From contig OZ024743.1 in assembly GCA_964016885.1 (NCBI GenBank), positions 341,868,001-341,932,000 on the forward strand: 64,000 bases of DNA, given 5' to 3'. Position numbers and translations under genes: made by a program. Source of the DNA: Eledone cirrhosa (lineage: Eukaryota). The notes below the pieces were generated by a model that did not search any database, was not told where the DNA came from, and saw nothing but the letters and a program-made list of their open reading frames with translations. The stretch's first letter is position 1, and each line of letters starts with the position of its first letter. Positions 980 through 56,291 of this stretch are shown piece by piece.

Positions 980-1682
980 ATGAAAGACGTAAAATAAGAA
1001 AATTTTAAAATTTTAAATTTTAAAATTTTCTTATTTTACGTCTTTCATATAATTGTTCTGCATCCCCTTGCATAGAACCACAAAGTTACTAAGACATAAC
1101 ATATATATTTGCTAGCATAGGTATACATCTGTATATATATGTTGGTAGATATACTAATTCTTTATATTTATCTCCAAATTATTTGTTGAGCAAAACCTGC
1201 CGAAATTACTGCTATGGTTCATGGTAGTAGTTAGGCTCTTGTCTTATTACCACCCACTGATTAACCTCAGTGTCACGTGATTGATTCTTTAGAATTTGCC
1301 ACTGAGCTAGTAGGCAGTGAATTTTTTCAATGTCCAGGAATTTACTCCCCGCTCGCTATTTTCCATCCACTGAATTATTTTTATATGAGTTCCTTGTGTC
1401 CACGCATTGCCTGGGAACTTAGCTGAGAATAGACTCCCGGAAGACGTAAGGATTTCTCTATGGTTGCGTTGCATAACCATATTTATTCCCTTACAGAAAC
1501 TAATTAGTTGGAGTGAAAATTTTAGTAAGTTAATTTTAAAAATTTTCTTATTTTACGTCTTTCATATAATTGTTCTGCATCCCCTTGCATAGAACCACAA
1601 AGTTACTAAGACATAACATATATATTTGCTAGCATAGGTATACATCTGTATACATATGTTGGTAGATATACTAATTCTTTAT
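980..1682 (+). mobile_element. Terminally redundant non-autonomous element (period 517 nt) with short 5' inversion and one HHR
   Basis: 1024-1166 repeated at 1541-1682; palindrome 980-1049; (TA)n on both sides. Confidence 0.75.
1433..1514 (+). ncRNA. Type I hammerhead variant (U4->G)
   Basis: stem I actcc/ggagt; core cggaaga; stem II gtaagg..ccttac; gaa + palindromic actaattagt; GUU site. Confidence 0.65.
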
Positions 1683-1787
1683 ATATATATATATATATAT
1701 GGAAAGTTATATTTAAATTGTTGGGTTAACAATGAGTAAATATTTATAACTGATATAAAAGCACTCAACAAGTATTTGGAGTATATT

Positions 1788-2091
1788 TATGATATTAAAT
1801 AAATGGAAACTATATTTATAAAACCATATTTATTTCATTATATATATTTCAGGGATATCATATTAACAATATGTTATGCCTTCATCAGACAAAATACAAT
1901 ATAAACAGTCTTATAAATAAATAGATATGACATACCTTTCAATCGACTTGCATTTGGGAAGTTGATAAGACTGTTTATATTGTATTTTGTCTGATGAAGG
2001 CATAACATATTGTTAATATGATATCCCTGAAATATATATAATGAAATAAATATGGTTTTATAAATATAGTTTCCATTTATTTAATATCATA
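1788..2091. repeat. Perfect inverted repeat (127-bp arms, 50-bp spacer), one HHR per arm
   Basis: 1788-1914 is the reverse complement of 1965-2091. Confidence 0.95.
1983..2048 (+). ncRNA. Type I hammerhead (mirror copy 1831-1896 on -)
   Basis: tattttgt-ctgatga-stem II-gaa-atatatat-a-atgaaata. Confidence 0.8.
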
Positions 2092-2118
2092 TATATATAT
2101 ATATATATATATATATAT

Positions 2119-2365
2119 AAAAGAATAGAGGTGTAACACACGAGTTGTGATATATTGGTAAAAGGAAAAGAAAATGCTGTTTGCTCTAATCTGATCAGTT
2201 TTGGAAATTCCACCTGTTTTATGTGAAAAAAGTGGCTCCAGACGTACTAAAATAAGTTTCGCGCCAATGCGTGTTGCAAAAATTCTTGTGGTCAAAACAA
2301 TTTTGATTGGTTGGTAGAGGTCACGTGAATGTTAAAAATTGATTTTACGCCAAATGTAGGTTTGT
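2119..2365 (+). repeat. Dispersed repeat, internally deleted copy of 42690-43087 (opposite strand)
   Basis: shared ttcttgtggtcaaaacaattttgattggt and flanks. Confidence 0.8.
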
Positions 2366-3349
2366 CGAAGAGTGTCTTTTTTCGCCTGATTGAGAAGTCA
2401 CTGAAAAATATGTCTTTTAAGACAAATATCTGTGTGTGTGTGTGTGTGTGTGTGTGTAGTAAAGAGGTTCTTTGTTGTGATAGCGGTCAGTAGGAATGTG
2501 TGTGTAAATTGCAGTCATGTTGACAGGTCAACAGTTCAGGTGTTTATTTAGACAAATATGTGTGTGTGTGTGTGTGTGTGTGTGTGTGTGTGTGTGTGTG
2601 TGTGTGTGTGTGTGTGTGTGTGTGTGTGTGTGTGTGTGTGTGTGTGTGTGTGTGTGTAGCAGAGTAATTCGAGGTAGAGGGATCGGTCAGTAGGAATGTG
2701 TCTGTACGTGTGTGGGGGATATTTTAACATGGTGAAAGCTATTTTTCAGCTCTTGTCGTATACGGAGAAGTGTGTGTGTGTGTGTGTGTATATATGTCTC
2801 TTTGTATGTTAGTGTACGCGTGTGTATGTGTGTGTGTATATATGTGTGTGTGTATATGTATGTATGTATGTGTGTGTGTGTGTGTGTGTGTGTGTGTGCG
2901 TGTGGGTGGACCAGTATTTTTGTGATACTGGTAAAAATGGTGTACATTATTCGATATTTTCAGCAAAAACGATTCTCTCAAGAGAACATCAAAAACATTA
3001 ATAATAAAAGGTGTGAAATGATATATTGTATTCTCATAACACCAGGCGTGTGTGAGTGTCCAGATTGTACGTACTGCAATGGGAATCCATTAGGCCCTGC
3101 CGTATTGGAATACTTGTGTACAAATATGTATGTGGCCATCAGTGTGCAATGCATGTGTGCGTATATGTATGTGTGTGTGTCGGCACGTTTATATCTATAG
3201 ACATCAAAAGGTATGCACATTTGTGTATATTTGTGTTGCACCATAGAACATGTGTGTTTACGTATGTCATTGTGTTTATATGTGGATAGAGATGTATGTA
3301 TGATGTATGCTGATGTAGGTATGTAAGTTGGCGTGTGTATGTTGTGGAT

Positions 3350-53160: not shown

Positions 53161-54038
53161 AAACTCACTTGGACGAAGATTTTTCTTAAATGATCACGGT
53201 CAGAAACGAATTCAAAATGGCTAAGAACTGTGACGTGGCAGTGGTTAAGTCAGAAAGAATGTGATTGGTGCCTTACGGCAAGTGGGCTGGTTGCTAGAAA
53301 GCGCAGCCTAATATTGCCTAAATTACATCTCAACCATATGGGAGGTTATCAAATGTAAAGATTTACATATACATAAACTAAACAAAGTCATAGATATATA
53401 TATATATGTTTTTGGCAACCATTCATCATGTGGCTCAATGACGAATTAATTAATTAAATAAATATATATATATATATATATATATATATATATATATATA
53501 TATATATATATATATACGTACGTATGTATGTATTGGTGAGATTTACCTTAAGTAATGCCAATCATATTCCCAGGGAAAATAAATAATACAAAATATATTA
53601 GAATAATCTAGTACAGGGCTAAGATATTCTCGTGTGATATTGACGGACTTGCGAATAAGTACTCAATACCAAAGTAGAGTTTAGATATTATTTAGTATGT
53701 CTAAGTGGTGAGTTTTGTTTCTCTCGAGCTTCTCCTGTACATTCAATAGAATATTCAATAGACAGAATAAATAGAAGGCATGGGGAGGAGAGTAGGTTGG
53801 ATTGGTGTTGACTGGATGATGTTTTGAAATGGATAGGGGTGTGAAGGATTTTGGCTATCAGGCGAGATGTGGGCAATAATAATCATCATACGAGAAAGTA
53901 TAGAAAGGTATGTATAAACATAGATATGCCTTGACAACATTGTGTGTGAGAGGGATGGGCAGGAAAATGTATTAATGCACCTAGTAGATATCACGTGATC
54001 TAGGATTTAATTATGACAATATATATATATATCGAGAA

Positions 54039-54098
54039 AACACTGTACAAATTTCGATGGCTTAATGAAGAAATACTTAGGCGATTTCATCAGGTGTT
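54039..54098 (-). ncRNA. Decayed hammerhead
   Basis: aacac/gtgtt stem I, ctgatga, gaaa; stem III damaged. Confidence 0.55.
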
Positions 54099-55368
54099 AA
54101 TTGTTATATTAGATAGGCAGGATTACGGCTAACATCAAAGAATTATTTGCATAACGTTAAATGCTTTAATCTATTGTATCACCGTTAATTAACCGGAATC
54201 ACCTGTTCAACCCATTACTAAACAACCTAAATATATATATATATATATATATACATATATATATATATACATATATATACATATATATACAATTATATGT
54301 ATATGTAAGCGTGGATGTGTGTATGTATATGTAAGTGTGTATCTATGTATGTGTGTATGTATGTGAGGATAAAAATACTTATGTATGCATATATATATAT
54401 ATATATATATATATATATATATATATATATATATATATATATATATATATATATATATATATATATATATATATATATATATATATATGTATGTGTAGGG
54501 ATGTGTGTATGTATGTGTATATATGTGTATATGTGTCTGACTGTGTATATATGTGTGTGTATGTCTATATATATGTATGCCTGAGTGTGTGTGTGTGAGT
54601 GGTTGTATATATACATGTGTATGTGTGTGTATATATATATATATATAAATATATATAGGTGTATATATATATATATGTATGGGTATATGTTTTACTTATT
54701 TTTATGCGTGTGCATACAAACAGGTCAATATGCGTGAGTGAAAGTATGTGTATGTGTGGGTGTATGTATGTACGTATCGAACGTATGGATGTGTAAATGT
54801 GCGTGTGTATATATGCATGTATAATTTTATGTCTCTCTTTTATGTTTTTTTATGTTTCTTTTGTGAGACATGCGTGTCTGTGTATGTATGTAACCCCCCC
54901 CCCCCCCTTTTTGTCTTTTTTTGTCTTTTTTTCTCGAGTTTTTTCCTTCTAAAATTTTTTTATTTCTAATTTATTGATACATTTTTATAAGTATGTCGAG
55001 ATTGACACTTTCCTTTAATTACTATACTCCCTTACCTCTTTTACTTCCGCATCTAAATGTAAGTGTGTGTGGGCGTGTTTATGTGAGCGCCTCAATATTC
55101 ATATACTTATGATGTATCTATTCCGTCTGTTGATTACAGACATACAGATACATTAGCCCTAAATTTTAGATTTACACACACTTTTTCACTATACGTATAC
55201 ATATGAGCATACACATATATGCACATCTGTGAGCGTATTTACATACATATACACACACCTAACTATATTTTCTTGATGAATTTCAATCTCTATTTCATTG
55301 GTCTATTCAAAATCTGTTCCCAAACAGACCTATTGTATTGAATTGTTGTTATTATCAATAAACAAGCA

Positions 55369-55509
55369 TCATTATTTCTGAAGACAGCATATATATGTGA
55401 AGGTATGTATATTCCCTCTGATAGTAGGTATAATTTTGTACATAGATCTTTTGAATATGCATACCAATTCTAACACATATATGTCCTAGAAACGATCGTA
55501 AAATAATGA
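55369..55509 (+). ncRNA. Long-stem-II hammerhead, diverged copy of 15155 family
   Basis: tcattattt-ctgaaga..gaa-acgatcgt-a-aaataatga. Confidence 0.82.
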
Positions 55510-55581
55510 ACTTTTTTTGTTTAATATGAGGAACTGTTTCTTTGTTTATTCATTATTTTTTTAATAATTTACATATATATA

Positions 55582-56291
55582 TATGAATGTATGTATAGTA
55601 TATTTAGTAATATACTGTGTGTTTAGTTAAAAACATTTTGAAGATCTTGCGCTGTTTTTTCAGCAAAGCAAGGGAGATAAGATGACAGATCGGTTTCACA
55701 CTGTTGGTGTTCCTCAGAGCCTAGTACTCGCCGATCTCTGCTGAAAATTATAGAGGCTGGATTCTTATAGAATTCCAGTAATAATTCGGAACTGATATAA
55801 CAGAGCGATTGCCGGTCCAGCAAAAATTAAAAGTTAGGATTGGTGCTCTGAAATAGCGATGTATACATGAATGTATGTATAGTATATTTGGTAATATATT
55901 GTATGATTAATTTAAAACGGTATATTACCAAATATACTATACATACATCACTATTTCAGAGCACCAATCCTATTTTTTTTAATTTTTGCTGGACCGGCAA
56001 TTGCTCTGTATAATCAGTTCCTGATTATTCCTGGAATTCTATAAGCATCCAGCCTCTATAATTTTCGGCAGAGGTCGGCGAGTACTAGGCTCTGAGGAAC
56101 ACCAACGGTTTGAAACAAATCTGTGAGCTTATCTCCCTGCCTTTGCTGAAAAAAGAAGTAAGTGACATAGTAACTACTTTAAGACAATAGCGCAAGGTCT
56201 TCAAAATGTATTTAATTAAACATACAGTATATTACTAAATATACTATACATACATTCATGTATACATCACTATTTCAGAGCGCCAATCCTA
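55582..56291. mobile_element. Head-to-head pair of ~319-nt terminally redundant HHR units
   Basis: cactatttcagagc at 55949 and 56268; HHRs at 55679-55722(-) and 56087-56130(+). Confidence 0.85.

Follow-up and report, generated by a model that had tools for sequence, protein, structure and literature searches.

The question raised by this locus is how six different non-coding elements, all within 64,000 nt of Eledone cirrhosa DNA, came to repeat their start at their end. The whole stretch analysed (contig OZ024743.1 of GCA_964016885.1, positions 341,868,001 to 341,932,000) is called the window, and positions are counted from its first letter. A first-pass annotation had proposed units that each carry one hammerhead ribozyme (HHR) or HHR-like core and are either retrozyme-like, left when a circular or oligomeric RNA was reverse-transcribed, or solo partial-tandem pLTRs.

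Elements and their terminal redundancy

The elements were named E1 (1021-1682), E2 (7401-7855), E3 (19634-20338), E4 (22331-23010), E5 (49745-50552) and E6 (55921-56291). Redundant termini were borne out at all six, every annotated period being recovered: 517 nt for E1 (152/155 identical), 429 nt for E2 (25/26 identical; a longer match of 33 nt at 91%), 600 nt for E3 (81/86), about 602 nt for E4 (82 nt, just 74% identical), 617 nt for E5 (186/193) and 319 nt for E6 (29/30, with an indel). The units are non-coding, with a longest stop-free frame of 48-81 aa. The first repeat scan of the window was dominated by microsatellites.

The E1 insertion (980-1680, plus strand, about 1.3 copies of the unit) is flanked by (TA)n on both sides. 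Its short inverted head (about 980-1013) terminates at the second fixed end of the E1 family. The E2 insertion (7401-7861, plus strand, about 1.08 copies) has a fixed 3' end joined to (TA)n. It is fused head-to-head with the inverted 85-nt 3' end of another repeat (7320-7404, minus strand), which is also present at 36855-36939, adjoining a Penelope-like element (PLE) ORF fragment. The inverted heads of E1 and E2 were omitted from the first-pass annotation. E3 lies on the minus strand (19634-20336, about 1.17 copies), with its fixed 3' end at 19634. E4 (22331-23012) and E5 (49745-50552) lie on the plus strand and hold about 1.13 and 1.31 copies, respectively; the upstream cut site predicted for the ribozyme lies about 30 nt before the 5' end of this E5 copy. 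E6 is composed of a direct piece (55900-56291, plus strand, about 1.2 copies), the fixed 3' end of which is joined to (TA)n, and an inverted 5' piece (55575-55918, minus strand, about 1.1 unit).

Hammerhead ribozyme motifs

A type I HHR was found on the element sense strand in the column-majority unit of all six families, and the family-majority score was never reached by dinucleotide shuffles (0/200 per family). The annotation of one HHR per element is wrong for E6: the inverted piece that extends this insertion to 55575 holds another HHR motif, on the minus strand near 55703-55721. Most motifs were missed by early strict descriptors because these limited the length of stems II and III and required C3-G8; a wider descriptor found all six. 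Among unit copies, window copies included, the full descriptor was passed by 25/52 for E1, 50/70 for E2, 20/32 for E3, 2/32 for E4, 23/32 for E5 and 12/46 for E6. In the window, E2 and E3 alone have a copy that passes it, and the motifs of E1, E4, E5 and E6 are damaged.

The E1 motif (1433-1514, plus strand, predicted cut after 1509) has a 51-nt stem II and a palindromic stem III; its core (1438-1444) is mutated (U4G) in the window copy. The E2 motif (7551-7593, plus strand, predicted cut after 7587) has an intact CUGACGA core and, as stem III, a 6-nt palindrome of the dimer type. The U3-A8 core variant, described for Schistosoma PLEs in passages of PMC8557442, PMC11167929 and PMC4209133, is present in two families. 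These are E3 (19857-19989, minus strand, predicted cut after 19862; 77-nt stem II) and E5 (50210-50336, plus strand, core at 50215-50221, predicted cut after 50331; 76-nt stem II). Both have a long stem III, and the first stem I pair is broken in the E5 window copy. The E4 motif (22713-22840, plus strand) is decayed (G8A), and its family majority has a CUGAGGA core and a 97-nt stem II. The E6 motif (56086-56131, plus strand) has a CUGAGGA core, with a GUG triplet in the window copy and a GUC triplet and palindromic stem III in the family. The hammerhead family was absent among the 150 of 204 Rfam matches listed; these were miRNA entries driven by microsatellites. For the HHR regions in the window, MFE z-scores did not reach significance.

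Copy numbers and insertion anatomy

The six elements are members of dispersed, many-copy families of head-to-tail non-coding units. Exact 3'-junction matches numbered 385 for E5, 859 for E1, 2567 for E2, 408 for E6 and 187 for E3, and 0 for reversed-pattern controls. E4, an old family with other copies about 66-80% identical, was left out of this count. The sampled copies were the best-scoring or first-listed ones, and the 3'-anchored samples comprised 90 copies for E5 and 50 each for E1, E2, E6 and E3.

The 3' ends are fixed and joined to (TA)n and the 5' ends are variable. Arrays range from less than one to several units (up to about 6.8 in E1). In the 3'-anchored samples, at least one unit was reached by 19/90 copies for E5, 14/50 for E1, 25/50 for E2, 11/50 for E6 and 10/50 for E3. 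With so few E5 copies reaching one unit, the 'monomer plus a bit' form does not describe the typical copy; this redundancy is an ascertainment effect. An excess of exact 1.0-unit E5 copies was seen in a score-ranked sample and was gone in the 3'-anchored sample. Circularly permuted start points were looked for, as the first-pass annotation had suggested, and are absent: the 3' end is fixed and the 5' end alone varies.

An inverted 5' piece was found in 31/50 copies of E1, 35/50 of E2 (some being microsatellite matches) and 24/50 of E6, and for 23, 25 and 13 of these pieces, respectively, the end falls at a single second site. Inversion was seen in 1/90 E5 copies; otherwise inversions, and the tail, are confined to E1, E2 and E6. 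The 5' junction abuts a TA run in 62/90 E5 copies. TSDs are unreadable because the insertion ends sit inside (TA)n. PLE insertions show partial tandems, an inverted 5' copy, a tail and a (TA)n bias in the parts of PMC8557442 that deal with them, and two internal RT start sites have been reported for PLEs (PMC11167929). The insertion pattern of the present families matches PLE target-primed reverse transcription.

Relation to Penelope-like elements

The window is crowded with PLE ORF fragments; a Pfam search on 12 ORF pieces gave weak GIY-YIG and RVT_1 matches for 2/12 only. No match was obtained by tblastn of the units against the PLE proteins of the window. Of 150 non-inverted copies, 3 had a PLE ORF fragment at most 300 nt away from their 5' end, and no upstream body common to a family was found among these 150. 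The alternative that units are always attached to PLE ORFs finds no support in this count or in the lack of ORF homology in the units. The layout of an autonomous PLE (an RT plus GIY-YIG ORF between pLTRs) is not that of the units. In a search for an autonomous partner, no homology to the flanks of PLE ORF ends was found at 470 loci and in the window; partner candidates at these flanks were independent neighbouring insertions.

Ends of E5 copies at the predicted cut site

Of 72 at-risk E5 copies, 28 have their 5' end in the 30 nt that follow the predicted cut on its 3' side, for 4.6 expected (p=1.7e-15), this 30-nt interval having been chosen after E5 was inspected. Within the first unit, the best 30-nt interval has its end at 225 nt, for a cut distance of 223. 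Three copies start exactly at +1 and one at +2, and the next predicted cut site is the stopping point of 3/7 copies. An HHR is read through in 44/90 copies. The copies stopping at the cut site form no separate subfamily. At four E5 loci, a 26-nt duplication has its end exactly at the cut site. The pile-up, which takes in nearly a third of the sampled E5 copies, probably preserves in DNA a trace of ribozyme cutting in vivo, and part of the E5 template population appears to have been linear, with an HHR-made 5' end.

No pile-up at the cut site was found for E1 (3/38), E2 (2/34) or E6 (3/30). E3 shows one, confounded by a coincident internal (TA)n: 3 of 9 stops are no true ends, as the copies run on past the (TA)n. 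Judged from the predicted motifs, the presence or absence of a footprint seems to run in step with ribozyme architecture.

Variants shared by the units of a locus

Variants are common to the units of one locus. Locus-concordant, position-concordant and cross patterns numbered 1431/24/22 for E1, 863/28/33 for E2, 1138/14/17 for E5, 186/16/12 for E6 and 1070/44/26 for E3; these pair counts are mutually non-independent, and gene conversion could yield the same pattern. Because units of one locus share variants, passage through a monomer, that is a monomer bottleneck in the lineages, is suggested.

Proposed origin and alternatives

These six families, with a type I HHR motif each, fixed 3' ends in (TA)n and variable 5' ends, are likely (probability about 0.8) non-autonomous PLEs, i.e. 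non-LTR retrozymes, which a PLE reverse transcriptase/endonuclease acting in trans has copied. Multi-unit loci would be transcribed and the transcript cut by the HHR, at a site marked in the DNA by the 5'-end pile-up for E5. For E1, E2 and E6, which show no pile-up, the palindromic stem III is predicted to require dimers. The lineage would include a monomer stage, in the form of a circle or of a cut monomer whose nick is jumped by the RT. The fixed 3' ends suggest that the PLE enzyme nicks (TA)n and begins cDNA internally, at a distance of 166-274 nt from the cut site on its 3' side. A second cDNA start, 24-110 nt further 5' in E1, E2 and E6, would correspond to the PLE 'tail'. The cDNA would halt at random or at an HHR-made 5' end, and copies past one unit would display the redundancy.

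A rolling mode of reverse transcription, on monomers closed covalently into circles, is compatible with this reading, E1, E2 and E6 being the families where it is most plausible; we give it nearly even odds. It agrees with private variants shared within a locus without position-specific differences. In E1, E2 and E6, copies continue across the HHR without stopping and extend over several units, and the palindromic stem III of these families fits HHRs which, in the relevant passages of PMC4209133, cut as dimers and not in monomer circles. Retrozyme circles have been demonstrated in coral, mussel and axolotl (PMC7229834). However, closed circles have no 5' end to explain the E5 pile-up, and the insertion ends are not permuted. 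That the E5 pile-up arose without RNA cleavage, because the RT stalled on the folded HHR or on a local hairpin, or through microhomology capture, seems unlikely. Most E5 ends are indeed located 7-28 nt downstream of the cut, where the 3' strand of stem I is predicted to form a hairpin with a second, downstream copy of the strand it pairs with, and the E3 pile-up coincides with internal (TA)n. Yet the E5 edge is sharp at +1, intervals with equal or stronger upstream folds contain 1-6 ends versus 26, the pile-up region is not TA-rich, and the subfamily duplication ends precisely at the cut site.

The abundance of PLE ORF fragments in the window would also suit solo or partial pLTRs of ORF-bearing PLEs, later tandemised locally, and a 2026 preprint proposes a pLTR origin with local amplification (10.64898/2026.07.22.740005); the restriction of sampling to best-scoring or first-listed copies leaves some room for this. 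We nevertheless regard it as quite improbable, since copies of more than one unit run on into the unit and not into an ORF, and PLE fragments occur near 23/180 loci with scattered offsets and strands. The units may have derived from a pLTR in the past. A single copy taken alone resembles two direct terminal repeats, as would a TRIM, an LTR-retrozyme-like element with fixed LTRs or a chance repeat. This origin is scarcely credible: 5' ends and redundancy length differ between copies, which leaves no fixed LTR pair, some arrays hold more than two units, many copies contain an inversion and the HHRs belong to type I.

Copying in trans by a PLE enzyme could be taken further, although only tentatively: the genome would be a fossil record of germline hammerhead activity, with stem III architecture setting the template. 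Monomer-competent U3-A8 HHRs (E5, E3) would give cut linear or nicked-circle templates, copied to the 5'-OH end or jumped. Dimer-type HHRs (E1, E2, E6) would give closed circles and, by rolling RT, multi-unit and inverted insertions. If true, this is genomic evidence for HHR-cleaved RNA as a real PLE retrotransposition substrate.

Comparison with known elements

From their sequence, the elements belong to an already known kind, the animal non-LTR retrozymes (PMC7229834; 10.64898/2026.07.22.740005). Like these, they consist of tandem units that are non-coding, low in GC and equipped with a single type I HHR, range from monomers to multimers and occur together with PLEs; the unit sizes are inside the 51-972 nt range of the preprint (10.64898/2026.07.22.740005). 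The retrozyme-like label is supported, and so, in its either-or form, is an origin by reverse transcription from an RNA that was oligomeric or circular. The present families differ from described animal retrozymes in that fixed internal 3' starts, (TA)n targets, inversions and E5 5' ends at the cut site were mapped here, and in HHRs with stems II of 51-97 nt, with U3-A8 cores in two families. Insertion anatomy, beyond co-occurrence, connects retrozymes to PLE enzymology.

Plant LTR retrozymes are also non-coding HHR retroelements of similar size, as far as PMC4918200 describes them. In that description and in the preprint (10.64898/2026.07.22.740005), they have type III HHRs, fixed LTRs, a PBS/PPT and a 4-bp TSD, whereas neither type III HHRs nor fixed LTRs occur in these families. 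Chlamys elements such as MRC1, as described in PMC8557442, are non-autonomous PLE derivatives with head-to-tail multicopy insertions; unlike the present units, they are mostly without HHRs and resemble their autonomous partner at the 3' end, no such partner having been found here.

PLE pLTRs and insertions, in passages of PMC8557442, PMC11167929 and PMC4209133, share with the present families partial tandems, 5' truncation, an inverted 5' copy, two 3' ends (the 'tail'), a microsatellite bias and an HHR upstream of the RT start. The units differ in having no ORF and in a tail offset of 24-110 nt, compared with 30-40 in PLEs as given there. The function of the HHR in PLEs is called unclear in a passage of PMC8557442. 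The new point is the concentration of E5 5' ends at the predicted HHR cut site; literature searches, with subscription papers and supplements outside their scope, found no earlier description of a pile-up of this kind. Whether cut RNA gets copied can be assayed cheaply within a genome by locating the 5' ends of copies anchored at their 3' end. In the Anolis element PAc, HHR cleavage is dispensable in vitro and no RNA-seq reads end at the cut site (PMC11167929), whereas genomic copies of E5 pile up at theirs.

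Terminal redundancies and hammerhead ribozymes

The six elements E1 (1021-1682), E2 (7401-7855), E3 (19634-20338, minus strand), E4 (22331-23010), E5 (49745-50552) and E6 (55921-56291) are real and belong to an already known kind. All six terminal redundancies claimed in the first-pass annotation were confirmed by a period scan and BLAST: E1, period 517 nt (152/155 identical); E2, 429 nt (33 nt at 91%); E3, 600 nt (81/86 identical); E4, about 602 nt (82 nt at 74%); E5, 617 nt (186/193 identical); and E6, 319 nt (29/30 identical, with an indel). E1 and E2 each have an inverted head that had been missed, and the count of one hammerhead ribozyme (HHR) per element fails for E6, where an overlooked 340-nt inverted piece bears a second HHR motif.

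For each family, 32-70 copies of the unit (tandem monomer) from the best genome hits were aligned, the window's own copies included. The HHR descriptor permitted a long stem II and either a C3-G8 or a U3-A8 core. A type I HHR was detected on one strand in all six family majorities, and the majority score was matched by 0/200 shuffles per family. The core was CUGAUGA in E1 (41/52 unit copies), CUGACGA in E2 (60/67), CUGAGGA or CUGAUGA in E6 (37/46), UUGAUAA in both E3 and E5 (30/32 each) and CUGAGGA in E4 (7/20). In E1, E2 and E6 (the dimer-type families) stem III is perfectly palindromic; in E3 and E5 it is a long arm without a palindrome. PMC4209133 already describes both dimer-type HHRs and the U3-A8 variant. 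Three E3 copies carry a compensatory pair change in stem I. Among the window copies, the descriptor was passed by E2 and E3 only, and no hammerhead was among the Rfam matches listed. In E5 (50332-50353) and in the E3 family majority, the 3' strand of stem I can also pair with a second copy of its partner strand located downstream; this predicted alternative pairing could be a switch limiting cleavage.

Copy number and insertion anatomy

First-look genome searches (38-40 candidates scored per search) returned 3023-4433 candidates for each of five families and 125 for E4. An exact 3'-junction pattern search, used to avoid length bias, then gave 385 matches for E5, 859 for E1, 2567 for E2, 408 for E6 and 187 for E3 (controls, 0). 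The first listed places formed the 3'-anchored sample (90 for E5, 50 for each of E1, E2, E3 and E6); one E1 row that matched an already included locus again was left out. The circularly permuted starts proposed earlier were not borne out: in the 30 best-scoring loci of each family, a fixed 3' end fused to (TA)n was the usual state, and 5' ends were variable. The 'monomer plus a bit' form is an ascertainment effect, at least one unit being reached by 19/90 3'-anchored copies in E5, 14/50 in E1, 25/50 in E2, 11/50 in E6 and 10/50 in E3.

Inverted 5' pieces were present in 31/50 E1, 35/50 E2 (a few being microsatellite matches), 24/50 E6 and 1/90 E5 copies. A single second end site lies upstream of the main end, by 110 nt in E1, 55 nt in E2 and 24 nt in E6, and inverted pieces ended there in 23, 25 and 13 cases, respectively. 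The same insertion pattern is described for Penelope-like elements (PLEs) in PMC8557442 and PMC11167929.

Clustering of E5 5' ends at the predicted HHR cut

The part worth following is the pile-up of E5 5' ends at the predicted HHR cut site, which is absent in the dimer-type families. The predicted cut and the fixed 3' end are 223 nt apart, and 28/90 E5 copies are 196-223 nt long; three of these begin precisely at +1 and another at +2. The site was read through by 44 copies; three further copies stop one unit on. Stops at the first site numbered 28 among 72 at-risk copies vs 4.6 expected from the background rate (p=1.7e-15), and at the next site 3/7 vs 0.4 (p=0.008). The 30-nt window width was picked after inspection of the E5 data; within the first unit, the best such window has its end at 225. 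The E5 result then served as a prediction for E3: 9/29 copies stopped at the cut site vs 2.7 expected (p=0.0009), a footprint that is confounded because 3/9 run on past an internal (TA)n immediately downstream of the site. An E3 subfamily (L137, L139, L146 and L149) carries an internal (TA)n some 8 nt downstream of the HHR cut, and at some loci it holds nested insertions. No pile-up was found in 3'-anchored copies of E1 (3/38), E2 (2/34) or E6 (3/30). A literature search, supplements excluded, found no earlier report of such a pile-up.

Elsewhere in E5, windows whose upstream folds are as strong or stronger held 1-6 ends vs 26. Piled and long E5 copies were equally divergent, and no site distinguished the two groups (best uncorrected p=0.049). 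A 26-nt duplication whose end coincides exactly with the cut site is common to four E5 loci; it is one inherited event and would be explained by jumping between templates to a 3' end that the HHR had made. No indel excess at the cut site was otherwise found in E5 read-through junctions. Units differed less within than between loci (for example, E5, 2.4% vs 4.4%; E2, 3.1% vs 4.1%). Shared variants follow the locus rather than the array position (pair counts non-independent), which disfavours an origin from a small set of master arrays whose units differ. This sharing suggests a monomer bottleneck; circles, jumps by reverse transcriptase (RT) on a monomer that has been cut, and gene conversion would each fit.

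Relation to PLEs and neighbouring sequence

Of the features of animal non-LTR retrozymes (PMC7229834; bioRxiv 10.64898/2026.07.22.740005), those open to testing here are found in these families; a proposal that such retrozymes are non-autonomous PLE derivatives already exists. No frame longer than 81 codons was found in any family's units, nor any similarity to the window's PLE proteins. PLE fragments lay near 23/180 loci at scattered offsets, and 3/150 non-inverted copies had one no more than 300 nt from their 5' end; upstream sequence was common to isolated pairs of these only. No autonomous partner was found among the flanks of PLE ORF ends (470 loci and the window).

(TA)n and (TG)n abound in the window (host genome, 3.0 Gb), which contains several broken PLE-like ORFs, with weak Pfam hits to 2/12 ORF pieces only. 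A broken minus-strand ORF at 3403-5141, which we take to be Neptune-like, combines RT with a C-terminal GIY-YIG and a CxxC linker; copies up to 97% identical were present among the fetched loci. Further PLE-like fragments lie at 20298-21990, 30858-32851, 37351-37776 and 58700-59134, some broken up by (TA)n, and E3 lies within the TA run where the first of them breaks off. The inverted head of E2 (7320-7404) is part of a different abundant repeat, which adjoins PLE ORF fragment 36855-37776 (region 36850-38000); this single case could be a chimeric insertion that hints at which PLE does the mobilising. ORF pieces at 60749-61378 and 63414-63776 resemble LINE endonuclease and RT by eye; Pfam gave no hit for them. 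Large inverted-repeat structures surround expanded microsatellites at 9606-15429 and 16704-19413. Two more E2-related minus-strand copies, at 33226-33538 (87% identical) and 44232-44656 (73%), have intact HHR cores. Type I HHR motifs also occur in other repeat families (1839-2040, 16755-16792, 19325-19362, 22129-22178, 29575-29624, 43686-43821 and 53084-53155), including inverted pairs and one motif with a 117-nt stem II.
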